A DNA stretch of 64,000 bases from a virus: positions 128,001-192,000 of the IMG/VR virus record IMGVR_UViG_3300045988_180880. One strand, written 5' to 3'. Under the pieces are notes generated by a model. The model saw nothing but the letters and a program-made list of their open reading frames with translations, was not told the origin of the DNA and did not search any database. The position numbers were made by a program, and so were the translations under genes. Positions 186 to 63,467 of this stretch are shown one piece after another; the stretch's first letter is position 1, and the number at the start of each line of letters is the position of its first letter.

Positions 186-240
186 CTTCTTTTAAATTTT
201 AATTTATACACTAATAAGGCTTTGAAGAAGAGCCTATTTT

Positions 241-5069: not shown

Positions 5070-5785
5070 TTAAGTACAACGTAACAAACAGTATGATCGG
5101 TAATATTTATCCGATTTTTTTGAGTAATAACAAACTAGTCGAAGATCCATCATACTATCTGTACAGAATTGTGAGTCCTAGTTTAAGTCCAGATCTTATT
5201 CCATATATATCATTGGAAAAGATTAGTGAAAGAACAAAAATTGGAAATCCAAAAGAATTCTGTGATAGTCAAAAGAAAAAAGCTATTCGTGAACATTTAG
5301 ATGTTATTTCTATGTGTCTTGGTAGTCGTGAAGGTCTTGAAGAAAAGGCAGTTGAGTTCTTGCAAGGAATTCTGTGGAGAGATAAACCAGTAATTGATAA
5401 TGGTTTTCCTGGATTTCCGTTGATTGAAATGGAGAATGGTAATAATATCCAGAAATCAGTAATTATTGGTCTTAGAGATACAATGAGATGGAAGTATTAT
5501 AAATTGTATCCTGGAAATTATGTTGATATTCTCTGGACTGCTAAGACTTATGCAGTATTTAAACTTTGTGGTGAAAAAGGAAAAGAGGAAGTTTGGATTG
5601 AACCGGTCGGATTATATAGTAATACAGATCCGAATATGAAAAATCCTCTTCCAGTAAATCTTGAATCTTTAGACTATCCTACCGATAGATGGTCTATTAC
5701 AAAGGGTAAACTTTCTGGATTGAATCGAGCATTGAAAAAGCTTGAATGGGAAAGTTTTAATAGAAAAGAAATTTGCGTAGATTAA
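5066..5785 (+). CDS. hypothetical protein
   Basis: 239-aa ORF; ATGA overlap with infA. Confidence 0.65.
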
Positions 5786-9499: not shown

Positions 9500-9510
9500 C
9501 CTTATTAATG
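9500..9510 (+). promoter_or_regulatory. phage promoter motif
   Basis: ccttattaatg; ends 23 nt before ATG 9533. Confidence 0.6.
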
Positions 9511-9532
9511 TAACAATAAAACATTGATAATT

Positions 9533-27200: not shown

Positions 27201-28421
27201 ATGAAAACACTTATTATTTTAAAGGGATTAGCAAAAAGTGAAAAGCTTGAATGGGTTAAATCTCAAGGTCTAGAAAATTTCTTTCTAGATTATTCTATTT
27301 TCAAGAGATTATATAGTATGCCTGAGTTAGATCGAGATAAAACAACTGATATCTTGGGAAGAACGAATATTAATCTCATCTTTAAGTCATGGTTTGAAGC
27401 AATTAATAATAAGCTCGAATCTGGATGTCTAGTTGTTATCGATTATGATCAGGAGAAAACAAAGATTTTGGAAGATATGGGTATGATTTATGGTTATACT
27501 TGTTTCTATAAAATCTTTAATATCCCTCACGACTATACATCAAATCCAGAAAAATATAGTCCAGTAGGGTTTAAAAAGAAGACGAAAGAAGAATTAGAGG
27601 CAGAAGTTATTACATTTTTAAATCTTCAGCTTGGATATACAAAGAAAATTGGAGGATACTCTGATGTTATGGATTACTGGAAGAAGAAAGAAGTAATTCT
27701 AGATATTCCAAGAAAAGAGACGATGTATTTTTTCTCTGATCTTCATTCCAATTATTCTCTCTATCAAAAAATTAATCTCCCTTCTGGAACAATAAGAGTA
27801 CATTTGGGAGATTATATTGATGGTCCAGAAGAAGGTGGATCTAGAAAACTTATAGAAATGATTTTTAAGAATGCATCATACTATAATATATTCTTAGAGG
27901 GAAATCATGAACGTAGACTTAGAAAATTTTTATTCTGGAGATGGGCTGCAAGTAGTAACTCAGGAGGAAGTAGAGCTATTATTGCCGAAATGCTTTATAA
28001 CTCACTTCCAACAGATTTTTTAACAACAACAGCTGACGAATTTAGATCTTTAACTCCAGGAGAAGCATTGACATGGTTAAATAGATTAAATGATATCTTG
28101 AAAACCCATATAATTATTAAAAAAGATGATACTGTTTTTTATTGTACACACGCTGGAATTAAATATCTTGAACAACTTAGTCCTAAATTTATAGGAAATG
28201 TTATCTATGGAAATCGAGATATGGATATTTATGATAAATGTTTCTCAAAAACTATATGGAAACCTACAGGAAGATGGTCGGTTCATGCTCATTGTAAGTA
28301 TCCAGATGGCGTTGATTTCCTTAAATATGATGGAGTAGTTAATCTAGATCCATCATGTGAAAAAGAAATAGTTTATATGGAAAATAACATTAAAAATTTT
28401 TTACCATGCATCGTACAGTAA
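27201..28421 (+). CDS. two-domain protein: degenerate P-loop kinase-like N-terminus plus calcineurin-like (lambda-phosphatase/ApaH-type) metallophosphatase
   Basis: C-terminal half carries YFFSDLHSN (DxH), VHLGDYIDGPEEG (GDxxDrG), LEGNHERRL (GNHE), YCTHAGI and VHAHC. The N-terminus IILKGLAKSEK sits at the Walker A position but is degenerate. Confidence 0.6.
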   Translation: MKTLIILKGLAKSEKLEWVKSQGLENFFLDYSIFKRLYSMPELDRDKTTDILGRTNINLIFKSWFEAINNKLESGCLVVIDYDQEKTKILEDMGMIYGYTCFYKIFNIPHDYTSNPEKYSPVGFKKKTKEELEAEVITFLNLQLGYTKKIGGYSDVMDYWKKKEVILDIPRKETMYFFSDLHSNYSLYQKINLPSGTIRVHLGDYIDGPEEGGSRKLIEMIFKNASYYNIFLEGNHERRLRKFLFWRWAASSNSGGSRAIIAEMLYNSLPTDFLTTTADEFRSLTPGEALTWLNRLNDILKTHIIIKKDDTVFYCTHAGIKYLEQLSPKFIGNVIYGNRDMDIYDKCFSKTIWKPTGRWSVHAHCKYPDGVDFLKYDGVVNLDPSCEKEIVYMENNIKNFLPCIVQ

Positions 28422-32725: not shown

Positions 32726-32999
32726 ACTACTAAGATTACACAAGTTAATTTGGGGAATTCTAGTTATTATAGGAATTCTTCTTGAGATGGTAATTGTAGT
32801 ACCAATCGTGTTTTTAGTGTTTATTTATAATTTTAGATTTAATCCAAGAAAAGTATGGGAAGCAATACATAGCGCAGACCTAGATTTTCAGAATAATTGG
32901 GGAGGTTATGCCTATCGTGATCATACTCCTTGGGATACGTTCAAAAGAAGATATAAATATACATTTAATCATATAGAGAACGAATCTAAAAGACAATAA
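32718..32999 (+). CDS. small membrane protein
   Basis: Hydrophobic segment WGILVIIGILLEMVIVVPIVFLVFIY. Confidence 0.55.
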   Translation: MIKLLRLHKLIWGILVIIGILLEMVIVVPIVFLVFIYNFRFNPRKVWEAIHSADLDFQNNWGGYAYRDHTPWDTFKRRYKYTFNHIENESKRQ

Positions 33000-33007
33000 A
33001 AAAGATA

Positions 33008-33045
33008 AAGTAGTAAGACATCAAAGCTTACTACTTTTATTTTCT
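33008..33045 (+). terminator. rho-independent terminator
   Basis: 10-bp stem aagtagtaag / cttactactt plus a T-rich tail. Confidence 0.6.
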
Positions 33046-33079
33046 ATGTAAAAAAAGGGAATCTCAGAAACCCCGAAAT

Positions 33080-33090
33080 CCTTATTAATG
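33080..33090 (+). promoter_or_regulatory. phage promoter motif driving an ORF-less unit
   Basis: ccttattaatg, with upstream gggaatctcagaaaccccgaaat resembling the extended motif at 62303-62324. No ORF lies downstream before the terminator at 33338. Confidence 0.55.
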
Positions 33091-33144
33091 TATGAAAAAG
33101 AATTTTAAAGAAAAAGATGATTTTATATTTTTAAATAAAGAACG

Positions 33145-33219
33145 AGTTCGGCTTACAATGTTAGTTACTACTAATTATTATATGGAATGCAAGATTATTA
33201 CTGCATTGATCTCCGAACT
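33145..33219 (+). ncRNA. structured small RNA, tandem unit 1 (75 nt three-way junction)
   Basis: Closing stem agttcgg/ccgaact; conserved hairpin ttagt-tact-actaa (33161-74); second hairpin aatgca...tgcatt. Junction strands CGGCT..ATGTTA and GATC.CCG are shared with unit 2. Confidence 0.55.
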
Positions 33220-33231
33220 TTAAATTTAAAT

Positions 33232-33312
33232 ACGTGGCGGCTCATGTTATTAGTTACTACTAAATTATAGATTTGTAAACTATGCGATTTACTGTAACGA
33301 TCACCGCCACGT
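33232..33312 (+). ncRNA. structured small RNA, tandem unit 2 (81 nt)
   Basis: Closing stem acgtggcgg/ccgccacgt (fully compensatory relative to unit 1); identical hairpin ttagt-tact-actaa (33250-63); second hairpin gtaaa...tttac. Confidence 0.55.
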
Positions 33313-33337
33313 AATTTAAAAAATATAAATAATTCTA

Positions 33338-33370
33338 AACTACAAGAGAAATCCTGTAGTTTTATTTTTT
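33338..33370 (+). terminator. rho-independent terminator of the sRNA unit
   Basis: Stem aactaca / tgtagtt followed by tttatttttt. Confidence 0.55.
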
Positions 33371-33429
33371 CTTCTCTGATACAAATAAAAAAAAGAACCT
33401 AGATTTTACTCTAAGTTCTTATTATTTTT

Positions 33430-33585
33430 CTATTCATTTACAGGAGGAAAGTCATCATTAATAACTTCTTCATTATCAATTAAACCCGCCTCTTTGTAGC
33501 AATTTCTTTTATTCTCCTTCATCCAGGCTACTAAACATCCTATTAAACCGAGAATAATTGCGATAAATCCTAATATCTTTTTCAT
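33430..33585 (-). CDS. small putative lipoprotein (51 aa)
   Basis: Hand-translated MKKILGFIAIILGLIGCLVAWMKENKRNCYKEAGLIDNEEVINDDFPPVNE, a signal peptide plus lipobox LIGC. A promoter motif lies 20 nt upstream. Below the ORF-track cutoff. Confidence 0.45.
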   Translation of the reverse strand: MKKILGFIAIILGLIGCLVAWMKENKRNCYKEAGLIDNEEVINDDFPPVNE

Positions 33586-33618: not shown

Positions 33619-35106
33619 TTAAGCGGATTCTGTGTTATTTTTATCAATATATCTTTTTATTTCTGTTATTAAGTCTTCTTCGGTTGAAATTATTGGTGCA
33701 AAATAACTATCTAACATTTCTTCAATAGTTGAAAAATGTTTTGTTGAGTCTCTACCTTCTCTTTTTAATATTTTAGGAATTGCAAAATAAATTATATCAA
33801 CTCCATGTTCTTTACACAAATTATACTTTATTAAATCTCGTTGTCTATGATTTTTAAATCCTTTCTCTCCTCCCATATAATTTACAGGAACAAAATGTTG
33901 TACTCCATGACCTTCTATTGCTAAGTTTAATTCTGGAATATAAAAATCTAATTCTAAATTCCTTTTATAAACTAACCAATCTAATGTATGACATCTTGGA
34001 ATAAATTCTATTCCCAAAGATTCTAAAATTTTTCTAATAATAGTTTCTATGGCAGATTCTTTTCGTTCTGGATAAACTAATTTCGTTAAATACCCTTCAT
34101 TACTAGCTTTGTGATACTCCTGTGGAAAATTAATTAAAAATTCAGTAGGACTTTGAATATTGTTATTATCTATAAACTCTTGCATTTCTTCAGAAGTTTT
34201 GTACTTGTCACCCCAATTAGCAACACTTGCTTTATATCTTAATTGCGTTCTAATTCCTAAAGTCTTTGCTCTTCCATAAATTTTTGGATAAGTTCTTTCA
34301 AAAGACTTGGCAGAATATATTTCTGGATGTGTATCAATAAATTCTTGAATATCTTCTACTGTATTAAATTCATCCACCAAACTATAAAGTATTCTATTTG
34401 GATATATTACCTTACTTCTTAATCCTAGTTTAGATAATTTAGCATACCCACTTAAAAATCGATTACTAAAATCTTTTGGATTTTGAATATTATTATCATC
34501 TATAAATTTTTGAGCTGACTCTAAATTATATATAGAATCCCAGTTATCTATATTAGTATGTAATCTATTAGGATATACTACAGACCTAGCAAATTTATTT
34601 TTTAATAATTTTCGATAAATTCCACCAAATCTTTTCTTAAAATCAGTTGGGTTTTGTATTTCATTATCATTAATAAATTTTTGATAGTAATCAACAAATT
34701 CTTCTGGATTTGTTCTTTTTGGAAATATTAATTTAGAAATGATTCTTAAGTTATTTGCTCTATTATATATAATTGGATAGTTAATTTTTAAATCAGAGGA
34801 TGATATAATTTGATTATCTTTAATGAATTTATTAATCTTTTCCAGAGAGTTTATATCTCTGTATAATAAGCTAGTTCTTCTATTCGGATAATTTACTTTA
34901 TCGGCAAAATTCTTTCTAACTAGGCGATTATAAATACTTGGATATCCCTTTTTAAAATCTAATGGCCTAGTAATTTTATTGTTATCTATAAACTGTTGAA
35001 AATCCTCAACAGTATTAAAGTCTTTTAAATCTAAAGAATTACTATTGTTCATTCCCGATTTAGCGACAGACTTTTCTTCGCTTTGAGATTTAGGTAAGTT
35101 ATTCAT
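33619..35106 (-). CDS. PD-(D/E)XK (DUF559-like) homing-endonuclease-like protein, paralog 3, with about five N-terminal ~60-aa repeats
   Basis: C-terminus LELDFYIPELNLAIEGHGVQHF...RQRDLIKYNLCKEHGVDIIYF. The N-terminus repeats the module F..FIDdN.I..P.DF...YP.IY.R.......v.YPNR (e.g. VEDFQQFIDNNKITRPLDFKKGYPSIYNRL...NYPNR; AQKFIDDNNIQNPKDF...IYPNR). Confidence 0.6.
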   Translation of the reverse strand: MNNLPKSQSEEKSVAKSGMNNSNSLDLKDFNTVEDFQQFIDNNKITRPLDFKKGYPSIYNRLVRKNFADKVNYPNRRTSLLYRDINSLEKINKFIKDNQIISSSDLKINYPIIYNRANNLRIISKLIFPKRTNPEEFVDYYQKFINDNEIQNPTDFKKRFGGIYRKLLKNKFARSVVYPNRLHTNIDNWDSIYNLESAQKFIDDNNIQNPKDFSNRFLSGYAKLSKLGLRSKVIYPNRILYSLVDEFNTVEDIQEFIDTHPEIYSAKSFERTYPKIYGRAKTLGIRTQLRYKASVANWGDKYKTSEEMQEFIDNNNIQSPTEFLINFPQEYHKASNEGYLTKLVYPERKESAIETIIRKILESLGIEFIPRCHTLDWLVYKRNLELDFYIPELNLAIEGHGVQHFVPVNYMGGEKGFKNHRQRDLIKYNLCKEHGVDIIYFAIPKILKREGRDSTKHFSTIEEMLDSYFAPIISTEEDLITEIKRYIDKNNTESA

Positions 35107-35351: not shown

Positions 35352-37058
35352 TTATTTATTTACTTTTTCTTTCTTAATATCTAACTCCATTATTATAGAA
35401 TCAGATACAATTACCTCAGAATTATCACCTAAATCTAAATTAATGATATTCCCAGAAACTTTTCCATTTACCATTGCAAGAGCTAATTTATCTTCTACAT
35501 ACTTTGAAATATTCTTTGATAAATCTCTAGCTCCGTATTTAGTATCTACTTGATCAATTATAAATTCTTTTAATTTTTCAGATATATTGATTTTATATCC
35601 TTTTTTTGATAAACGATCGCTAAGTTTTGCAATTTCAAGATCAAATATCTTTATCATTTCCGGTTTTCCAAGTTCATTAAAGATAACAATATTACTAAGT
35701 CGTCCAATAAATTCTGGTCTAAAGAATTTTTCCATGGCCTTCATTACTATAGACTTATTATCTTTATTTTTCTCATCTTGACTTTGTTTATTAAATCCGA
35801 GTCCATTTCCTTTTTCAGATAGTTGTTTCGAAGCTACGTTACTAGTCATCAAAATTACGCAGTTCTTAAAACTCACTTCGAGACCGTTACTTAGGTTAGC
35901 TTTTCCTGTGTCAAGAATTCCTAGGAGTAAGTCATAAATATCTTTATGAGCTTTTTCAATTTCATCAAATACAATAACCATATTTGGATTAGTTCTTACT
36001 TTTTCAAAAACTGCTGTATCTGAATCAGATCCTAAATATCCTGGAGCGCTTCCAAGTAATCGGGATACAGAATAACTCTCTGTATATTCTCCCATATTAA
36101 TAAGTAATAAGTTTTTCTCAGCGCTTTCAAAGAAAAGTTCAGCTATCTTCTTAGAAATCAGGCTTTTACCTACACCAGTCGGACCTAATAAAAATGCCGT
36201 ACAGATAGGTTTATTGGGATCCTGTATATCAAGAATTGATTTTTGAAGTGCAGTAACTACAGTATCAACTGCATCTTGTTGTCCTATAATTTCTTTTTCC
36301 AAGACTTTCTTCATGTTTCTAATTTTGATTGCTTCACTATCCTTCATCTTGTTTATAGGAACATTAGAAATCTTAGATACTACTGACATAACATCTTCTT
36401 CAGTTACTTCAGGCCAACCAGAAGGATCATTAAGTTCTCCAATTAACTTTAATCTCTCCTCCTCAAGTTCTTTTTTCAAAACCAATTCAGTATCTCTCCT
36501 CTTCTGAGCCTCATCGAAATCTTGTTCCTCTACTAACCTAATTTTTTCCTTAACAATATCATCAATCGCTTTTTCTAGGTTATCTACAGAACTAGTATCA
36601 ATATTTTTTCTAAGTTTTGCTGCACTAGCTGCAATATCAATACAGTCTATGGCTTTATCTGGGAAATGTCTATCATAGATATATCTTCCACTAAGTTCTA
36701 CACAAAGTTTTAAAATATCATCTGTATATCTTACTCTATGATAATCTTCATATCTTTCCCTAAGTGTCTTTAATATTTCCAAGGTTTCTTCTTTGGTTGG
36801 CTCAGACACCATTACCGTTTGAAATCTTCTTTTAAGAGCACTATCTTTTTCTATATATTTTTTAAATTCTGTAGTTGTTGTTGACCCGAGACATCTGAAT
36901 TTCCCTCTAGCTAATGGACCTTTAAGAATATTAGCTCCATCTCCTTTACCATCATTCGAACCATTACCTACTAGATTGTGTATTTCATCTATATAAATAA
37001 TTATTTCAAGATTATTTTCTACTTCTTTGATTATAGCATCTAAACGCTCTTCATATTG
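35352..37058 (-). CDS. clpC: ClpC-type AAA+ chaperone, exon 2 (rest of NBD1, UVR-like M-domain, NBD2)
   Basis: (Q)YEERLDAIIKEV..IIYIDEIHNLVG (Walker B), ALKRRFQTV, QDFDEAQKRRDTE (UVR-like), FLLGPTGVGKSL (Walker A2), VIVFDEIEKAH (Walker B2), GLGFNKQ (ClpP-docking LGF loop at the position of ClpC VGF), FRPEFIGRL. Confidence 0.85.
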   Translation of the reverse strand, partial: QYEERLDAIIKEVENNLEIIIYIDEIHNLVGNGSNDGKGDGANILKGPLARGKFRCLGSTTTTEFKKYIEKDSALKRRFQTVMVSEPTKEETLEILKTLRERYEDYHRVRYTDDILKLCVELSGRYIYDRHFPDKAIDCIDIAASAAKLRKNIDTSSVDNLEKAIDDIVKEKIRLVEEQDFDEAQKRRDTELVLKKELEEERLKLIGELNDPSGWPEVTEEDVMSVVSKISNVPINKMKDSEAIKIRNMKKVLEKEIIGQQDAVDTVVTALQKSILDIQDPNKPICTAFLLGPTGVGKSLISKKIAELFFESAEKNLLLINMGEYTESYSVSRLLGSAPGYLGSDSDTAVFEKVRTNPNMVIVFDEIEKAHKDIYDLLLGILDTGKANLSNGLEVSFKNCVILMTSNVASKQLSEKGNGLGFNKQSQDEKNKDNKSIVMKAMEKFFRPEFIGRLSNIVIFNELGKPEMIKIFDLEIAKLSDRLSKKGYKINISEKLKEFIIDQVDTKYGARDLSKNISKYVEDKLALAMVNGKVSGNIINLDLGDNSEVIVSDSIIMELDIKKEKVNK

Positions 37059-37280
37059 CATTACGTTAACTATATGAAAATATTTTCATATAGATCAGTA
37101 TATGATTTCAAGTTTAAATATTTAAACTTGGCCAGTCTTTATACGTTACACTAAAGAATATTATCTTTAGTTCGGCATTAAATTACTTAACTAAAGCGTA
37201 AGATAGTTAAGGTTATTCGCCGAATTTACTAGCTTATAATCTAAAGAATCACTTCTTTAAACGGCCATTTTATAATCACA
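37059..37280 (-). mobile_element. probable group I intron (ORF-less, ~222 nt) splitting clpC
   Basis: It interrupts the conserved LVAG..(Y/F)RG-E-(F/Y)EERL motif between FRG and YEERL. Minus-sense order of helices fits P3 (tggcc/ggcca), P4 (ttcggc/gccgaa, with P- and Q-like aaattcggcgaa / aatgccgaac), P5, P6, P7 (gtata/tatac), P8 and P9 hairpins. It shares AACG..UAUAAAGACU with the rusA intron R region. The model splices after U and the intron ends in G. Boundaries are good to a few nt only. Confidence 0.65.
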
Positions 37281-38276
37281 ACCTCTAAATTGGCAACCAG
37301 CCACTAAAGCGTTTAAATCTAATGAGAAGATCCTTTTATCTATCAATTCTCTAGGAACTTCTTTATTTACTATTTTCTGACACAATCCTTCAATAATTGC
37401 GGTCTTTCCACAACCAGCTTCAGCTAATAAAATTCCATTGTTCTTCTTCCTACATGATAGGATTTCAATAATCTGTGAAATTTCTTTATCTCTACCTACA
37501 ATTGGATCATATTCTCCATTTTTTGCAGCTAAAGTCATATCTGTAGAAAATTTATCAAGGAAAGGGGTTCTAGAATTTGGATCTAGGTTTTCGGGCTCAT
37601 TACTTCCTTGTCCAGCCATTTCAAATTCTCGATCTTCCTCTTCGCGACGTTTTTCTGAGTCTTCGTCGCCTTGGTTATAATCGAGAGTTTTTTCTTTAAG
37701 TTCGCCGCCGTTATTTTCCTCACGGTTATCTTCTTGGTCTTTTATTCCAAGTTTCGTATCGAAGTCATTTATCTTCCAAAATAAACTCGTGAGGTCTCTT
37801 GCATCGGCGCCTAATTCATCTACAAGATACTCTGCAATCTTACTAAATTCTGTTTCTGGAAGTGAACACATAAGAAAAGCTAGTGTATCAATATCATCAG
37901 TCATCTCAGATTTTAAATTTATATCTGTCAGTTTATCCAAGATATAATTAATGGCTGGAGACAAGACAATTGAATCAGCGCCAGTATACAATTCAGAAGG
38001 CGCTGTAAATTTATTGTCTTCTCTAATTTCGGCCACTACATCCATTATAAATTCTCTAAGATCTTCCTCTGTACTAGGTTTTCCGATAAACAGATCTTTT
38101 AGATAATCTCTTAGTTCTGGAATATCACCTTCATTATCTAGATAAGTTATAACTATCTGAGAAACTATATGATCTAATGATATTTCTTTTCCCATAAACG
38201 AGACTACTTCTTCATGAGCTTTCTCGAAAAACTTTTTTAATTCTTGAGATAATTCAAATTTTGATGAATCTTTCAT
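37281..38276 (-). CDS. clpC: ClpC-type AAA+ chaperone, exon 1 (Clp_N-like N-domain, acidic insert, NBD1 Walker A)
   Basis: PIVGRDKEISQIIEILSCRKKNNGILLAEAGCGKTAIIEGLCQKIVNKEVPREL..RIFSLDLNALVAGCQFRG matches ClpA/B/C NBD1 up to the RG. The ORF-track tail CDYKMAV is intron read-through. Confidence 0.8.
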
Positions 38277-39642: not shown

Positions 39643-40196
39643 TTTAAATTTATTTTTGGTTCTCCAGTAATTTTTCCAGTATCTATAAGATAATTTCGAA
39701 AGATTATAGTTTTTAGAAATCCTGTTACAGTTTTAAATTTCTTTTCAGGGATAGGAACCACAGAAGTCAGAATATCCTTTCTAGTAAATGAGTTTAATTC
39801 GTACTCCCTGATTAATCGGGTTCCTGGTTGTTTATTCAACGATTCTACTTCCATTATAAATGAAAGTTGTATCATTGGATCTTTATAAAGTCTTTTTGAC
39901 ATAGAATTAAGATTTGAAATTTTTGGACGGTCAATTGAGGATGCTAAAACTAATCCTACTTTAGAGAAATCCATTAATTGTATTGGTCTTTCTTTTTCGA
40001 ATTTTTCTAAGTATGGTTTTAATTTTACTTCGTCCTGTACAATTTCAAAACTAAATCCAGGTTCTGCAAACACTTCGAATCTACCATAATCTACATAAGG
40101 TATTGTAATTTTTTCTGTAGAATTTGATTCTGTAAGTACTGTATAATATACTGTGAATACATTTTGTATAACACATTGATAAACTTTTACATCCAT
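39630..40196 (-). CDS. hypothetical protein, tandem paralog B
   Basis: See 39103..39642. Confidence 0.6.
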   Translation of the reverse strand: MDVKVYQCVIQNVFTVYYTVLTESNSTEKITIPYVDYGRFEVFAEPGFSFEIVQDEVKLKPYLEKFEKERPIQLMDFSKVGLVLASSIDRPKISNLNSMSKRLYKDPMIQLSFIMEVESLNKQPGTRLIREYELNSFTRKDILTSVVPIPEKKFKTVTGFLKTIIFRNYLIDTGKITGEPKINLKWGK

Positions 40197-41974
40197 TCTT
40201 CTATAGTATTATCGTTCCACTTCACCCTAGCATATACATCTGGGGCATTATCTAATCTCAATTCTAAGTTTTTAAAATCTTCTCTGAATTCTTGAGGTAG
40301 TTCGAATACTTTATTTATTACCTCCTTCATAATTTCTCGAGCCTTTAATTGTCTGGCTTTCTTTCTCCATACTCTGGGACAAAATACGGCCGGAACATAT
40401 ATAAAGTGATCAGAAGCGGCGGATATATCTGTTATAACTACCTCAGAAGGATCTATCTCAAGTTTTTCATACTCTGGGGTGTTCCAGTATCCATATTCAT
40501 TTTTCTTTGGTTCCTTAGAAAAACATAAATACTTATCTCCTTCTTTAACAAACCATAAACTTCCGCCGCTAAACTCCTCTTTATATTTTTCTAATAAATC
40601 AGCCGGTGTTGATAGTCCCGGATCTTCATCGAAATAATCTTGAAGAATTTGTTTTATCTCTCCAACTATTTTTCCAGGAGCTAATCTAAATTCTGTCATT
40701 ATACACTCTCCTGTAACTGGAACTGTGAAATTTGCAGTAGGTTGAAGATTTTTTATTCTTTCAACTTCGGAGAGAAATGATTCAGTTTGACCTGGCATAT
40801 TCCAACAAGGTTTATGGTTCATATTATCAGCTTCAATTAACTTCATTTCATCCGTCAAGTTATCTCCAAGAAGTCTGATAAGTTGACGAGTTTTCTTTGG
40901 TTTTCCTGTATATAATCCCCGAGAATAGTCATATAGCTGTTTAATACACATATGATTTTCAACTAAGAAAACGACTTTATCAATTACTTCCCCCGGATAT
41001 TTAAGATTAGTTAGGATTTTTCTTGTTTCTTTTGCTGACTCTTTATCATGTTCATGAAATGAAAATGATCCATCTTCTTTTACTTGATAACATATTGGTT
41101 TAGAAACATCATGAAAGAGGGCTGCTAACCTAAGTTCAAGATTTGCTCCGCCTTGAATTACATGACCCAATACAGCAAGAGAATGTTCACCCCAAGTCTT
41201 ATCATGATATTTATTATTCTGTACGAAACCAATATTTAATTGAAAAATCTTAGAAATTCTCCACATAAGACATCTTCCAATTAGTTCTCGAATTCCCCAT
41301 ACTGCATTTTTTGACATTAAAATCTTAGTAAACTCATCTCTAATCCTTTCCATACTAAGAGATGAATATTCTGGAATATTATCAATCTTAGAGTATGTTT
41401 CCTCAGAAATAGTAAACATTTTAGTACAGGCAAATCTGATTGCTCTTAACATTCTAAGAGGATCATCTTTAAAAGTCTGTTCAGGATCAAGAGGCGTTCT
41501 TAAGATTCTATTCTTACAATCATCTAAACCTTTCCCCGTTGGATCTAATACCTCTCCAGTTAATAGGTTTTTATATAATGCATTACAACAAAAATCACGT
41601 CTAAAAGCATCCTCTGTGATATTAGTTTGTTGTACTGTATCTGGTTTTCTCGGTCCTTGATTATAAGTTTCAACTCTAGGTACAACACACTCTATATCTA
41701 TCTTTTCATTGGCTCCTATGTCTAATGAAAATTTCCCAGTTTTAAATCTATTATAAGTAACGAAACCAGAACATTCAGGCTTTGTTTTTAGGAAATCTAT
41801 AAAGAGATCTGTTCCTTCTGGATAATCAATACAAAGATCTATATCTTTTGGAGTTTTTCCTAAAACTAAATCCCTAACACATCCACCAACTAGATAGATT
41901 TTTTCTTTGAATTTACAATCTTGAACTACTTCTTTTAATAATTCGACTGCTTTTTCGTAATCAATTTTCTTCAT
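40187..41974 (-). CDS. cca: CCA-adding enzyme / tRNA nucleotidyltransferase with HD domain and extra C-terminal domain
   Basis: KIYLVGGCVRDLVLGKTPKDIDLCID (GGxVRD...DxD), DPLRMLRAIRFA, HD region HDKTWGEHSL...LRLAALFHDVSKP. About 150 extra C-terminal residues. Confidence 0.8.
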   Translation of the reverse strand: MKKIDYEKAVELLKEVVQDCKFKEKIYLVGGCVRDLVLGKTPKDIDLCIDYPEGTDLFIDFLKTKPECSGFVTYNRFKTGKFSLDIGANEKIDIECVVPRVETYNQGPRKPDTVQQTNITEDAFRRDFCCNALYKNLLTGEVLDPTGKGLDDCKNRILRTPLDPEQTFKDDPLRMLRAIRFACTKMFTISEETYSKIDNIPEYSSLSMERIRDEFTKILMSKNAVWGIRELIGRCLMWRISKIFQLNIGFVQNNKYHDKTWGEHSLAVLGHVIQGGANLELRLAALFHDVSKPICYQVKEDGSFSFHEHDKESAKETRKILTNLKYPGEVIDKVVFLVENHMCIKQLYDYSRGLYTGKPKKTRQLIRLLGDNLTDEMKLIEADNMNHKPCWNMPGQTESFLSEVERIKNLQPTANFTVPVTGECIMTEFRLAPGKIVGEIKQILQDYFDEDPGLSTPADLLEKYKEEFSGGSLWFVKEGDKYLCFSKEPKKNEYGYWNTPEYEKLEIDPSEVVITDISAASDHFIYVPAVFCPRVWRKKARQLKAREIMKEVINKVFELPQEFREDFKNLELRLDNAPDVYARVKWNDNTIEEWM

Positions 41975-47073: not shown

Positions 47074-47192
47074 TACAACATTATATCAGAAGAGCTAAGA
47101 AATTTGGAGTGAAACTTAGAGTATGGAAATTTGTAAAATGGAAAATGACATGGAGAGTTTACTTTAAAGTACTAACCCCGAGTTCCTTATAA
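47064..47192 (+). CDS. probable C-terminal continuation of the methyltransferase in the -1 frame
   Basis: The frame opened at the A-rich gaaagaaaataat reads KKIIQHYIRRAKKFGVKLRVWKFVKWKMTWRVYFKVLTPSSL. This is protein-like and reminiscent of the Trm1 ..i.r.Aak....i.Pl......y.Rvf.kv segment. Confidence 0.4.
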   Translation, partial: KKIIQHYIRRAKKFGVKLRVWKFVKWKMTWRVYFKVLTPSSL

Positions 47193-47195
47193 ATG
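47185..47195 (+). promoter_or_regulatory. phage promoter motif
   Basis: ccttataaatg; ends 26 nt before ATG 47221. Confidence 0.6.
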
Positions 47196-47220
47196 TATTA
47201 ATAAAAAAAATTAAACAATT

Positions 47221-51034: not shown

Positions 51035-51562
51035 TTATATATTTTTAATTACATTATTAAGGGATTCAAATCTTTTCGGATCACTATTTATAAATCTTCT
51101 ATAAAATATTTCTTTTTCTACAGCGTAACCTAATTCAAAATAATTTATTAAAGAATAACCCATAACGATACCAGTACCAATATCACTGAAACGAATAGAA
51201 AAAACATCTCTTAATCTATTATTTCCATCAAAAAACCAAAACTCATTCTGTTGATTTACTCCAATAAAATTACCTAAGAGATCAAAATACTTAGATTTAT
51301 ATAATCCTTCCATTGCTTTAGAAGATAAAATTTCTAATTTCTGATCTGTCTCCCATAAATACTCTTTAATTTCAAGAGACCTAAGTTCTCCGAGAGTTGG
51401 AAAAAGAATATTAGTATAATTATTCCAATCAGCCCAAGGAATTAAAATTTCTAGGTCTTTTCCATACAAAGGTGGTTTTTCTGGATTTACTTTCAAACAT
51501 TTTTCATACAACTGTAATCCTTTTTTTACATCCGAAGTATAAATTGAAATATAACTAATCAT
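51035..51562 (-). CDS. hypothetical protein
   Basis: 175-aa ORF. Confidence 0.6.
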   Translation of the reverse strand: MISYISIYTSDVKKGLQLYEKCLKVNPEKPPLYGKDLEILIPWADWNNYTNILFPTLGELRSLEIKEYLWETDQKLEILSSKAMEGLYKSKYFDLLGNFIGVNQQNEFWFFDGNNRLRDVFSIRFSDIGTGIVMGYSLINYFELGYAVEKEIFYRRFINSDPKRFESLNNVIKNI

Positions 51563-52094
51563 AATTACTACTAACTGCTATATATCTATTATTATCTAGA
51601 TCTACTAATACTAAACATATTTTACCACCTGACATATAAAATAAATCACCTTCCCAAAATTCATTCCTATTAACTCCAACTTCTTTCCAAGCTTTTCTAA
51701 AGGATGTTATTAAATAATCTTTAGTATAAAAGTTAGTTATTGTAGATGATTTAGATATATTAACAATCTCTATAAACTTTTTAGAAATCGAACTTCCTGA
51801 AATAAATCCAAAAGGCATAACTAATTCTTCTAGGTCTTTCTTTAATGATAGCATCCTCGAAACATTAAGATATTTCTCATTAATTGGATGTGTCGGTTCT
51901 TTTACTTCTCCTAAACTAAAGAAATAATCATATAGCTCAGAAAATTCAGGATAAAACTCTTCAATTATCTTAGGATCCGCTGTTATAAGTTCGGCCGTAT
52001 TATTTTCCCATCTAACCTTACAATACTGTCTGAATTTCTTATTTAAATCTAATCCAGAACATAATACTCCCAATAAAAATCTACTATCTCTCAT
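51555..52094 (-). CDS. hypothetical protein, paralog of the frame-disrupted 52084-52684 gene
   Basis: LDLNKKFRQYCK...IIEEFYPEFSELYDYFFSL parallels VSLDQKFYEYCK...AVQEFYPEFHIF/ELFFCL. Confidence 0.6.
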   Translation of the reverse strand: MRDSRFLLGVLCSGLDLNKKFRQYCKVRWENNTAELITADPKIIEEFYPEFSELYDYFFSLGEVKEPTHPINEKYLNVSRMLSLKKDLEELVMPFGFISGSSISKKFIEIVNISKSSTITNFYTKDYLITSFRKAWKEVGVNRNEFWEGDLFYMSGGKICLVLVDLDNNRYIAVSSNYD

Positions 52095-58231: not shown

Positions 58232-58972
58232 TTAATCCCCTCTATTAAAAATATTCACATTTACTTCTTTAAAACCTCCTGCTGATAAAACAGCATTACT
58301 ACAAGCAAATCTATCCTCCTGTTTTAATTTTTGATACATTTGAAGTATTTGTCCTGTTGGAGAATCATCAGTTAAGTGTATCTGATTTTCCCTTAACATT
58401 TCATTACTAACATATGTAATAAAACGGAAAAATTTTGTATCTTTCTGAAAAATTCCTAAGGCAACTCCATCATTCAATTTTCCTTCTAAATTCCATTCTC
58501 CCTCTTTTTGAACTTCAGGAATTATTGTTGTAATCATTGCAGAATTAGATCTTAGATAAATATCTACAATCTTTTCAAAGTCAATATTATCTATTTTTAG
58601 ATATCTTTCGCGATACCTTCTCATAAAATGTGCTTCGAATATTACAATATTCCTCAAATTAACATCAAGTGATGGGAATAATATAGCATTCTTTTTTCCA
58701 GTTATTCCATTATTTACGATAGTATAAATGGTAGTCCCTTTTGAAAATTCTCTTTTATTAGGCCATGCTTCAATAATTGCTCGATATTGATTTCTTGATA
58801 CATTAATAATCTTCGTCTCCTTAAACGGAACTGGAGACTTCGTTTGTTGATAAATCTTTAATATTTTATGTTTATTTTTATCTATTTCTCTATTAACTAC
58901 ATCTAGTATAGTCTGATAATCTCTTTTCAATTCTTTAAAGATCTCATCACTGTTCATGTTCATTGTAATCAT
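58232..58972 (-). CDS. hypothetical protein
   Basis: 246-aa ORF. Confidence 0.65.
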   Translation of the reverse strand: MITMNMNSDEIFKELKRDYQTILDVVNREIDKNKHKILKIYQQTKSPVPFKETKIINVSRNQYRAIIEAWPNKREFSKGTTIYTIVNNGITGKKNAILFPSLDVNLRNIVIFEAHFMRRYRERYLKIDNIDFEKIVDIYLRSNSAMITTIIPEVQKEGEWNLEGKLNDGVALGIFQKDTKFFRFITYVSNEMLRENQIHLTDDSPTGQILQMYQKLKQEDRFACSNAVLSAGGFKEVNVNIFNRGD

Positions 58973-60054: not shown

Positions 60055-60065
60055 CCTTATTAATG
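60055..60065 (+). promoter_or_regulatory. phage promoter motif
   Basis: ccttattaatg; ends 23 nt before ATG 60088. Confidence 0.6.
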
Positions 60066-60087
60066 TATAATAAAAATATAAAAAATT

Positions 60088-62324: not shown

Positions 62325-62335
62325 TCTTATAAATG
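62325..62335 (+). promoter_or_regulatory. phage promoter motif driving an ORF-less unit
   Basis: tcttataaatg, with the extended upstream accgtctgagaaaccgggaaaa nearly identical to the 19691-19712 reverse complement. No ORF longer than about 8 codons lies before the stem/T-run at 62627-62658. Confidence 0.55.
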
Positions 62336-62545
62336 TATTAAAAGACACAATAACAAAAAAAAGACATCATAGGCGTCTCAAGAAATGCGTAATGTATAGC
62401 TTGAGCTTGTGAAGAACTGAAAAATCATGTAAGGTTTAAATCTCACTAATCTCTTCAGAACTTCTACGTTTATGAGGTGCAAAATTAAACAACTTTAAAC
62501 GACACAACAACAAAATTAAAATTAAAATAATTAACTGAATCTATA

Positions 62546-62623
62546 GACAAGATAGTTTAGCGGGTCAAAACACTAAGATAATTGTTTATCTTAGAATCTC
62601 AGGTTAGAATCCTGATCAAGTTC
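62546..62623 (+). ncRNA. tRNA-like element (non-canonical; not confidently a functional tRNA)
   Basis: TA at positions 8-9; D-arm gttt-agcgggtca-aaac with A14, GG and A21; T-arm tcagg-ttagaat-cctga. However, the acceptor gacaaga/tcaagtt has 2 mismatches, the T-loop has A where C56 should be, and the anticodon arm is ctaagat-aattgttt-atcttag (7 bp/8 nt, or 8 bp/6 nt). No encoded CCA. Confidence 0.35.
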
Positions 62624-62751: not shown

Positions 62752-63066
62752 ATGACAAAAAGCTTAAAGGAGTTTAATTTTTTAAAAATAAAGATTATGA
62801 AAAGAATTAACAAAATGAATGAGTTGAATGTAGTAAACAGTAAAGTAACGGCAGAATTAGTTAAACCAGAAATTACAGGACATGCTACATCAAATTTTGA
62901 AACAACCTTCCCTATTCCAAAGGTAGGAGAAGTGAAAATGAAGATTGACGTGACAAGTACAGTAACGTCATCAATAGCCGCTCAAGAAAAATTGGATGAG
63001 TTGGCAGAAAAAAAGAGCAAACCGAACCTTAGAAAACATTGGAAAATTTGTGGGTTTGGTACTTGA
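62752..63066 (+). CDS. hypothetical protein, 5' part of a probably frame-disrupted gene
   Basis: The ORF may really start at ATG 62797, whose upstream 17-mer aaaaataaagattatgaaaa is identical to the one at the 6259 start. The frame is lost at the A7 run 63008-63014. Confidence 0.5.
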   Translation: MTKSLKEFNFLKIKIMKRINKMNELNVVNSKVTAELVKPEITGHATSNFETTFPIPKVGEVKMKIDVTSTVTSSIAAQEKLDELAEKKSKPNLRKHWKICGFGT

Positions 63067-63376
63067 GAAATCTCCGGAAATATTTGATATGTTCCAGAGT
63101 TTCGCAGAAAAGAATGAACAATACAAAGAAAAGTTCAGAGAAAAACAAAGCTTGGAAGAATGGGATGAAAAAGTAAATAATCTCATCTTCCTGCTAAGAC
63201 AAAAACCTAGTTCAATGACGAATCTAGAGTTTTTAGAAGAGACGTTAGAGAATGGGGATTATGAATCTCAAAAAATCTCTAAATGGGCGATCTTACAGTT
63301 TAATAAAAATAACCTTGGATTGCTGAATGAAAGACAAAGAGATTCATTAGCTAGTATAGGTTTTATTGGCTATTGA
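62996..63376 (+). CDS. hypothetical protein, 3' part (+1 frame) of the same gene
   Basis: The +1 frame after the A7 run reads ..KKRANRTLENIGKFVGLVLEKSPEIFDMFQSFAEKNEQ..., which looks more protein-like than the frame-1 tail SKPNLRKHWKICGFGT. Confidence 0.5.
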   Translation: MSWQKKRANRTLENIGKFVGLVLEKSPEIFDMFQSFAEKNEQYKEKFREKQSLEEWDEKVNNLIFLLRQKPSSMTNLEFLEETLENGDYESQKISKWAILQFNKNNLGLLNERQRDSLASIGFIGY

Positions 63377-63436: not shown

Positions 63437-63447
63437 TCTTATATATG
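63437..63447 (+). promoter_or_regulatory. phage promoter motif
   Basis: tcttatatatg; ends 21 nt before ATG 63468. Confidence 0.6.
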
Positions 63448-63467
63448 TATTATTAATAAAATATATT

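Follow-up and report, generated by a model that had tools for sequence, protein, structure and literature searches.

A probable stand-alone structured non-coding RNA with two tandem paralogous units in human-gut jumbo phages

What does a phage locus encode when it has a promoter motif and a terminator of its own and, between the two, a pair of similar units of about the size of a tRNA? The question is raised by positions 33081-33372 (+) of a 64,000-nt stretch of viral DNA (IMG/VR record IMGVR_UViG_3300045988_180880, positions 128,001 to 192,000), here called the window, whose numbering is used for all positions below. This transcription unit is composed of a promoter motif, a leader of ~50 nt, two paralogous units and an intrinsic terminator, and it very probably specifies a stand-alone structured non-coding RNA. 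Unit 1 (33145-33219, 75 nt, +) and unit 2 (33232-33312, 81 nt, +), which a first-pass annotation had already delimited and called homologous, do share a 35-nt block that is 74% identical and includes an identical 14-mer, TTAGTTACTACTAA, and the two modules (~75-81 nt) arose via an old tandem duplication. The closing stems that it had singled out, AGTTCGG/CCGAACT in unit 1 and ACGTGGCGG/CCGCCACGT in unit 2, are unrelated in sequence and perfectly complementary. An AU-rich spacer, TTAAATTTAAAT (33220..33231, 12 nt, +), separates the units, and a trailer of 24 nt (33313..33336, +) leads from unit 2 to the terminator.

Evidence on what has been preserved at this locus comes from its relatives. Exact-pattern scans found it on 17 IMG/VR contigs (25-378 kb) that are near-identical to the window (loci of this type are labelled W), while pattern scans of IMG/VR also uncovered a second lineage (L137/L143) whose neighbouring genes are at 61% identity; a third lineage (L145) carries the cassette in a different gene neighbourhood. 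The same three locus types were met in ENA human-gut metagenome assemblies, along with one 371-kb contig binned as 'Mycoplasmatota'. Following the neighbour genes in the protein database added two further lineages on the window side (L187 and L189, neighbour protein 74-75% identical) and five further variants on the L145 side (neighbour protein 79-86% identical). Orthologous loci are thus present in ~5 diverged lineages of human-gut phage contigs of 250-377 kb and in two gene neighbourhoods, one in which the cassette follows a 93-aa gene and one in which it lies between a 133-aa gene and a glutathionylspermidine-synthase gene. The latter, L145-type context is co-directional, and the next gene there has its own promoter-like copy after the terminator. 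There are exactly two units at every locus, and the whole cassette, from promoter element to terminator, is kept across both of these unrelated neighbourhoods. Looser pattern scans of IMG/VR, metagenomes and genomes, a scan with the leader and a blastn search against GenBank phages found none outside this clade; a blastn match in a Lak phage was discarded as a chance match to a coding region. Two contigs with the locus are listed in the huge-phage collection of a study of the Jug phages (human gut, 363-378 kb, 30-31% GC, i.e. guanine plus cytosine; PMC12880540), and from size, GC content and habitat we infer that the contigs fit the Jug clade of Bacteroides/Phocaeicola phages described there (PMC12880540). 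The window itself is AT-rich (~29-30% GC).

The relatives provided a comparative set of 24 distinct unit sequences from the ~5 lineages, the first 29 and last 20 columns of which align without gaps. RNAalifold, applied to the first 16 of these sequences, predicted a rod and not a three-way junction; the covariation term was -4.1 kcal/mol. When the rod model was laid over all 24 units, every one of the 384 base-pair cells was a standard pair (384/384) and 9 of the 16 pairs showed compensatory double changes; sliding the same pairs by 1-3 columns reduced pairing to 25-52%. The stems are therefore kept and covary in the relatives, and these compensatory substitutions across homologues point to a structured non-coding RNA. 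A covariance model built from the units, run with filters off over 128 kb of window sequence (both strands counted), scored 93 and 77 bits on the two units, with the next best match at 20 bits, and it matched the + strand only. The first-pass annotation had proposed a promoter-to-terminator unit with two homologous RNAs under selection for RNA structure, and the orthologues, with their fully paired cells and double changes, bear out this part of its reading.

The conserved rod has the following parts. At its base is P1, a helix of free sequence and of 7-13 bp (7 were counted in the model, and there are up to 13 in unit 2 of L145). An invariant CGG/CCG clamp then surrounds a pyrimidine-rich 4x4 internal loop, CUYA opposite AUYW, above which comes an upper helix of 9 bp: P2 (5 bp), a bulged U that never varies, and P2b (4 bp, one of them an invariant U·G). 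The rod is closed by an apical region of ~35-40 nt, rich in A and U, whose first nucleotides are the conserved UACUNCUA, the invariant alignment columns of this apical start being T22, A23, C24, T25, C27, T28 and A29. The same invariant positions are common to both units.

In unit 1 (all parts on the + strand), the 5' strand of P1, AGTTCGG (33145..33151), pairs with CCGAACT (33213..33219), and G33144 could add a G·U pair with T33220. In this helix a G-C pair is replaced by A-U in the L145-type lineage, a compensatory change, and strain L014 has a G·U. The internal loop consists of CTTA (33152..33155, consensus CUYA), in which C, U and A are invariant in the 24 units, and ATCT (33209..33212, consensus AUYW), in which A and U are. 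The 5' strand of the upper helix (33156..33165) is made up of CAATG (P2), the bulged T33161 and TAGT (P2b), and pairs with ACTG (P2b) and CATTG (P2) at 33200..33208. All cells of the upper helix are paired; P2 covaries between unit 1, unit 2 and the L145 type (CAAUG/CAUUG, UGUUA/UAACG, UGUUA/UAACA and CAUUA/UAAUG being its variants), and in P2b UAGU/ACUG becomes UGGU/ACCG in unit 1 of the L145 type, an exchange of A-U for G-C. The apical region (33166..33199) starts with TACTACTA, the DNA form of the motif given above, and is polymorphic in its distal part (33191-33199).

Unit 2 (also +) repeats this architecture. P1 is formed by ACGTGGCGG (33232..33240) and CCGCCACGT (33304..33312), and in four lineages it reads ACGUGGCGG/CCGCCACGU, AUGUGGCGG/CCGUCACAU, ACAUAACGG/CCGUUAUGU and AUAAAUAACGG/CCGUUAUUUAU, fully paired each time. 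The internal loop has CTCA (33241..33244) on the 5' side, with a C/T polymorphism at 33243 that yields CTTA, and ATCA (33300..33303) on the 3' side. The upper helix pairs TGTTA (P2), the bulged T33250 and TAGT (P2b) at 33245..33254 with ACTG (P2b) and TAACG (P2) at 33291..33299; the basal U·G of P2 is replaced by U-A in L137, L187 and L189, and the whole of P2 by CAUUA/UAAUG in the L145 type. The apical region (33255..33290) again starts with TACTACTA and holds a small hairpin, ATAG (33267-33270) with CTAT (33280-33283); two compensatory pairs turn it into AUGA/UCAU in L137, and in L162 and L156 it is AUGG/CUAU, with a G·U. This hairpin belongs to the window-side lineages, the register being different in the L145 type.

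The fold originally drawn for each unit was a three-way junction, and here the comparison leads elsewhere. When both folds were enforced in turn, the rod came out as the more stable one in 10 of the 11 representative units. For the sequence of the window itself, rod and junction are nearly isoenergetic; only there does the junction survive as an alternative, and it was drawn in the first place because unit 2 of the window slightly prefers it, as the only unit to do so. The pieces of the junction fare no better. A hairpin TTAGT-TACT-ACTAA, reported as identical in the two units, uses the same 5' nucleotides as P2b and loses one pair (to U·U) in 8 of the 24 sequences with no compensatory change. 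The second hairpin of unit 1 (AATGCA/TGCATT) occupies the 3' side of P2 and is missing in the L145 type, where its 5' arm is TTTTTG. The supposed junction strands ATGTTA and GATC are not conserved motifs in their own right; they belong to P2 and to the internal loop, on its 3' side (AUYW in relatives). The near-equality of the two folds in the window does hint at a switch, and two tandem similar domains with conserved internal-loop nucleotides might suggest a ligand- or condition-sensing RNA (tandem riboswitch domains) or a pair of self-cleaving ribozymes that process the transcript. This is nevertheless very improbable: bistability is not conserved, since 10 of the 11 units clearly prefer the rod; a search at E-values up to 10 matched no riboswitch or ribozyme model of Rfam; no regulated gene follows; and the terminator is constitutive in form. 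What lies downstream of the locus is the terminator and then either opposite-strand genes (window) or the glutathionylspermidine synthase gene (L145 type), and a riboswitch or other cis-regulatory leader was rejected on the grounds that no + strand gene follows in the window and that the next gene at L145-type loci has its own promoter copy. As to ribozymes, no CUGANGA or GAAA hammerhead core was seen in the units by eye, no known ribozyme class emerged from the Rfam search, and the family is too narrow for typical ribozyme classes.

The strand is settled by the homologues. The window sequence taken alone folds slightly better as the - strand, but a - strand transcript was rejected since each wobble seen in the homologues is a G·U when read on the + strand, and on the other would turn into an A·C mismatch. 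Among them are the U·G of P2b, which never varies, the basal U·G of P2 in unit 2, and further G·U pairs that occur in L014, L137 and L187. Because the wobbles are confined to the + strand, and the promoter and a covarying terminator are also on it, the RNA is a + strand transcript. The same observation bears on the idea that the two imperfect palindromes act as DNA, in the form of cruciforms, single-strand hairpins or protein sites, in replication, recombination or packaging or as an insulator. The setting would suit such an element: the locus sits between a + strand gene block with its stop at 32999 and a convergent - strand block with its stop at 33430, cumulative GC skew in the window peaks at it, it is flanked by hairpin-plus-T-run sites on both strands (the terminator hairpin and T-run of the upstream gene at 33007-33037, +, and the terminator of the - strand genes at 33393-33420, -), and inverted repeats with conserved cores are typical of DNA sites of this kind. 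However, G·U is tolerated on one strand only, even at an invariant position, which argues for a single-stranded + strand transcript and not a DNA element, and the cassette has its own promoter and terminator and a co-directional context in the L145 type. There is, accordingly, very little to be said for a DNA-level role.

Selection on the units can be gauged against their surroundings. Between W and L137, identity is 89% for unit 1, 83% for unit 2 and 90% for the promoter, as against 57-86% for five upstream protein genes, 58% for the spacer and 62% for the trailer; on the L145 side both units are 97-99% identical and the adjacent 133-aa gene is 85-90% identical. The conservation of the units equals or exceeds that of the protein genes nearby. 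Variation within the window type follows the fold. Among 43 W-type loci, all 9 polymorphic sites within the units fall in an apical region, at the Y position of an internal loop or where a pair becomes G·U, and no helix is broken; in unit 1, six of the seven are apical and the seventh is the C>T change at 33214, which gives a G·U in P1 on the + strand only. Purifying selection acts on the fold.

Might it act on a peptide instead? The region had been taken to be free of open reading frames (ORFs), which does not strictly hold for the window, where a 43-codon ORF (33092-33223, +) overlaps unit 1; in other lineages this ORF shrinks to 10-13 codons. A small protein of 43 aa (MKKNFKEKDDFIFLNKERVRLTMLVTTNYYMECKIITALISEL) encoded by unit 1, with RNA structure as a secondary matter, could draw on the facts that gene callers annotate the ORF in public assemblies, that it is kept in L137 with an in-frame indel of 6 nt and intact in L187, and that a TTA of its frame is replaced in the L145 type by the synonymous TTG. 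Its length is 43, 43, 43, 38 and 38 codons in the W-side loci, and three window-side lineages have the frame unbroken (43, 43 and 38 codons). Yet the units are 97-99% conserved in L145-type loci in which the ORF is cut to 10-13 codons, as it also is in L189; unit 2 displays the same conserved features with no usable ORF, having no start codon at all in the L145 type; and perfectly compensated stems are not explained by coding. Because the ORF stops early in L189 and the L145 type and unit 2 there lacks a start, coding is not the conserved function, and it was rejected as the feature that unifies the family. In addition, the ATG lies inside the promoter core and for this reason is probably upstream of the transcription start. 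A primarily protein-coding role for unit 1 is hence most unlikely; a lineage-specific peptide is conceivable. The locus is a cautionary case, in which gene callers label part of an RNA gene as a protein of 38-43 aa.

The promoter motif announced by the first-pass annotation is real. The motif CTTATWAATGTAT, counted with one mismatch allowed, has 8 copies in the window against 1.06 expected, a number reached in none of 100 shuffles. The copy at the locus, CTTATTAATGTAT (33081..33093, +), is kept in all orthologous loci. The others are at 206-218 (-), 9501-9513, 47186-47198, 58798-58810 (-), 60056-60068, 62326-62338 and 63438-63450, with a weaker one at 51049-51061 (-); five of the seven other copies, a total that takes in the one at 58798-58810 (-), which was not compared with any start codon, sit ~17-22 nt before an ATG that reads in the same direction, in many cases preceded at a distance of 6-8 nt by a CC(C) box. 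This supports the view that 33081-33093 is a phage promoter shared with protein genes. Most motif copies precede start codons with an A-rich leader and no Shine-Dalgarno (SD) sequence, and the recurrent motif together with the SD-less leaders is consistent with a Bacteroidetes host and a phage-specific class of promoters. Judging by the spacing at the other copies, transcription would start near 33099-33102, and a start near 33100 would give an RNA of ~270 nt (about 33100-33372). The leader (33094..33144, +) begins with 17 nt, GAAAAAGAATTTTAAAG, that are conserved in all lineages (three-lineage alignment), and a scan for this string found matches solely in the present RNA family. Directly upstream of the core is a promoter-proximal element, AAAAAAGGGAATCTCAGAAACCCCGAAATC (33051..33080, +), which is conserved in W, L137 and L145 despite the different gene context of the last and contains the CC(C) box found at other promoter copies. 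Read on the - strand, 33059-33081 is a weak hairpin followed by a U-run (a terminator-like site, 33081-33059, in the scan), and the element with this - strand feature accompanies the cassette into its second gene context; it may be a shield against antisense read-through or an upstream promoter element.

The terminator (33337..33372, +), likewise correctly recognized at the outset, is a hairpin (33337-33362, -8.5 kcal/mol, z = -2.6) followed by a T-run. Its stem covaries, having undergone compensatory changes across three lineages; these three have all retained the U-run, which L189 shares, and the length of the T-run is polymorphic among W-type strains. To judge from the sequences, then, the locus is an independent transcription unit, whose own promoter and terminator are conserved together with the RNA. 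In L137 (IMGVR_UViG_3300045988_180056), a GC-rich insert of ~160 nt that is absent from the window lies right after the terminator of the module (5460-5620 of that contig); it includes a long G·U-rich hairpin (GGACACCCC...GGGGTGGTGTC), has no Rfam match and may be another structured RNA or the remnant of a mobile element.

The leader and trailer probably also contribute to the architecture of the RNA. A 14-nt inverted repeat (I5), 93% complementary, pairs 33122..33135 (+) in the leader with 33316-33329 in the trailer, and the predicted helix, P0, would enclose both units and tie the two rods into a Y-shaped RNA. P0 appears in the minimum-energy folds of three lineages independently, the sequence being different in L145. 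Among 2000 composition-matched shuffles, 18, 71 and 54 gave a duplex energy as good or better in the three lineages, i.e. a level of ~1-4%, and because the region is AU-rich the support is moderate.

How could such an RNA act? Since the stems accept any sequence that pairs, while both copies, in all lineages, are held to a fixed sequence in the internal loop, around the bulge and U·G and at the start of the apical region, the overall explanation that we put forward, tentatively and at somewhat less than even odds, is that the RNA acts in trans as a recognition surface displayed twice. As its partner, an RNA-binding protein or a nuclease, of phage or host origin and possibly dimeric, seems likeliest; the RNA would serve it as a scaffold or act on it as a decoy or by titration. 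That the RNA works by binding protein is itself a guess that the conserved features make plausible rather than probable. The RNA could be active intact or after an endonuclease cut in the AU-rich spacer had freed two hairpins, the poorly conserved 33220..33231 being a segment that may plausibly serve as the entry site. A more specific version, in which a Y-shaped phage decoy presents the same sequence-specific surface twice (internal loop, bulge/U·G and UACUNCUA) and captures a dimeric Bacteroides RNA-binding factor or an RNA-sensing defence nuclease, or else recruits the phage RNA-repair or CCA-adding enzyme, is a long shot.

Several considerations weigh against a protein-binding RNA that acts in trans. 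The transcript, its ends and any processing are things we infer from sequence. No partner protein was identified among the locus neighbours, and since no neighbouring gene is conserved with the cassette across loci, context gives no clue to the partner. The family is narrow, being restricted to one clade of gut jumbo phages. The covariation is largely between the two paralogues, which brings the number of independent compensatory events to roughly 10, not dozens. P0 is AU-rich and only marginally above chance, and so no more than suggestive. Finally, the conserved single-stranded motifs could equally be seeds for base pairing.

This last point amounts to a different account of the locus, in which it encodes a base-pairing small RNA (sRNA), or a pair of them processed from one transcript, with UACUNCUA and the AU-rich AUUAURGAAU as the seed and with phage or host mRNAs (e.g. 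the A-rich SD-less start regions of Bacteroidetes) as targets, or with host sRNAs to be sponged. The prophage anti-sRNAs AgvB and AsxR work by sponging or pairing, and tandem paralogous sRNAs such as OmrA/B and PrrF1/2 are common in bacteria; an apical motif that is invariant while the stems vary and a stand-alone gene running from promoter to terminator are both what would be expected. There is also a 13-nt match between UAGUUACUACUAA of the units and the start region of a - strand gene (51035-51562; site 51561-51574, which overlaps the stop codon of the upstream gene). However, the site differs in 6 of 17 W-type genomes, and because it varies among strains while the units do not, the match is probably due to chance. 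The 86 start regions in the window, which formed the search space for targets, pair with the units no better than background overall; the middle of the putative seed has changed from A to U in both units of L137 and L189; and pairing leaves the invariant internal loop and the CGG/CCG clamp unexplained. Complementarity over 8 nt between the units and the terminator of the upstream gene (AGTAGTAA, 33009-33016) was rejected as well, since there is no covariation and L137 has kept this terminator with changed units. An sRNA of this kind is possible but, on balance, rather unlikely.

The size of the units invites another comparison. At 75-81 nt, with a terminal stem of 7-9 bp, they could be a pair of tRNA-like decoys for anticodon nucleases or substrates of the CCA-adding or RNA-repair enzymes of the phage, since the window does encode an RNA-ligase/metallophosphoesterase-like protein (27201-28421, +) and a 595-aa CCA-adding enzyme with an HD domain (40187-41974, -), and the small hairpin of unit 2 has a loop, UUUGUAA, that resembles an anticodon loop. 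But this loop is not conserved in unit 1 or the L145 type, there is no cloverleaf, D-loop, T-loop or 3' CCA, and the initial verdict that the units are tRNA-sized and not tRNAs agrees with the negative results of ARAGORN and the Rfam tRNA model on them. ARAGORN at default thresholds found 0 tRNA genes in the window and 0 in the module in bacterial and mitochondrial modes, which led to the rejection of a tRNA or mitochondrial-type tRNA on either strand, and at thresholds of 50-70% gave meaningless matches only. Of all the readings weighed here, tRNA mimicry in either form can hardly be credited. The RNA-repair-type genes in their own right suggest that the phage counters damage to tRNA or other RNA. 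The one match of the Rfam tRNA model in the window is a degenerate tRNA-like gene at 62546-62623 (+; 39.8 bits), which ARAGORN misses by default; its acceptor stem has two A·A mismatches and its anticodon loop is 12 nt long. About 200 nt upstream is a copy of the promoter motif (62326-62338), the ~200 nt between the two being free of ORFs. The gene might yield a non-canonical tRNA or a decoy, or it may belong to a second non-coding transcript. Downstream of it, two + strand ORFs in different frames (62752-63066 and 62996-63376) overlap by ~70 nt, which may reflect a frameshift, recoding or an assembly error.

Is the RNA, then, a member of a known family? None could be named at the outset, and Rfam 15 (4227 models, including C4, pRNA, Y RNA, 6S, hammerhead, twister, hairpin, nadA, glycine and Bacteroides sRNAs) matches neither unit at gathering thresholds or, with permissive filters, at E-values up to 10; the orthologous loci have no Rfam match, and the sole weak matches nearby are the flanking terminator hairpins. 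A type III toxin-antitoxin RNA (ToxI-like, with near-identical repeats of ~35-45 nt and a toxin gene) was rejected, the units being of 75-81 nt and ~74% identical in their best block, and no toxN-like domain was found in the locus neighbours, PADLOC not having been run. The IS110 bridge RNA, TnpB/IscB guide RNAs, retrons and mimics of CRISPR repeats were set aside on general grounds, no recombinase, nuclease or reverse transcriptase being a conserved neighbour of the locus.

Several described systems are instructive for what they share with the present RNA and for what they do not. Like the C4 antisense RNA of P1/P7 (RF01695), a phage RNA of ~77 nt that is cut from a longer ORF-less transcript and has a terminal stem formed by its 5' and 3' ends and conserved unpaired segments, it combines a closing stem with fixed single-stranded parts; unlike C4, whose two loops pair upstream of the ant gene in the same operon, it has no downstream target gene, is a rod with an internal loop, always comes as two paralogous copies and shows no match in sequence or structure. 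The phi29 pRNA (RF00044) is another stand-alone ORF-less phage RNA from promoter to terminator, and is an oligomeric protein-binding scaffold. Its model is not matched here, however, it forms a ring via complementary loops, and it belongs to a small podovirus, not a jumbo phage; kissing between the two arms of the present RNA was rejected, as their complementarity is no better than in shuffles. T7-like RNase III hairpins (R1.1), with two helical segments totalling ~20 bp and a small internal loop, have the size and shape of each rod, whose predicted geometry (7-13 bp, 4x4 loop, 9 bp) would be compatible with an RNase III substrate of this type. But the T7 signals lie between protein genes and serve mRNA maturation, whereas here there would be only the hairpins themselves to mature, and cleavage is conjectural; moreover, the internal loop is conserved far beyond what RNase III would need. 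The prophage anti-sRNAs and sRNA morons (AgvB, AsxR, DicF and IpeX) are small non-coding genes with their own promoter and terminator that lie between phage genes and act in trans on host regulators. These, in contrast to duplicated structured rods, are single short Hfq-dependent hairpin RNAs with identified targets, and Bacteroidetes are not known to have Hfq. Tandem-domain riboswitches (class I NAD+ nadA, glycine) similarly have two adjacent similar domains and a stem interrupted by a conserved internal loop, but no Rfam match links them to this RNA, which has no expression platform for a downstream gene. The likeness to tRNA, finally, ends with length and terminal stem, the cloverleaf, its D, T and anticodon arms and the CCA all being absent. 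The resemblances to C4, pRNA, the T7 hairpins, the anti-sRNAs and the tandem riboswitches are of general form only, and the RNA gene matches none of the described families tested, although its general kind, a promoter-to-terminator phage sRNA moron, is familiar.

Two features of the surrounding genes deserve mention. A 495-aa HNH/homing-endonuclease ORF (33619-35106, -) lies next to the RNA locus; a link between the two was rejected, the endonuclease gene being absent from L137-type and L145-type loci. It is close to a ClpB-like AAA+ gene that is split in two (35352-37061, -, and 37257-38276, -), the parts matching consecutive segments of one PHROG profile (139-267 and 268-756) and being separated by a gap of ~195 nt. 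In this split region no group I intron was detected at the Rfam threshold. Fragmentation by introns and inteins has been reported for Jug phages, and the split ClpB-like gene fits this pattern.

Phage metagenomes have been predicted to hold thousands of orphan structured RNAs (8495 candidates; PMC10690425). The Jug clade is reported to account for ~1% of gut metagenome reads and to be transcriptionally active (PMC12880540), and if the assignment to it is right, the phages that carry the RNA described here are among the most abundant viruses of the human gut. A gene for an RNA whose fold covariation bears out, which has diverged less than the neighbouring protein genes and which Rfam does not match, offers a testable entry to the use of RNA by jumbo phages. 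Bacteroides and Phocaeicola, the hosts in this case, are not known to have Hfq, and little has been learned of their RNA biology. Should the idea of a decoy or scaffold prove true, the locus would represent an RNA-based tool for host takeover or anti-defence in an abundant clade of gut phages.

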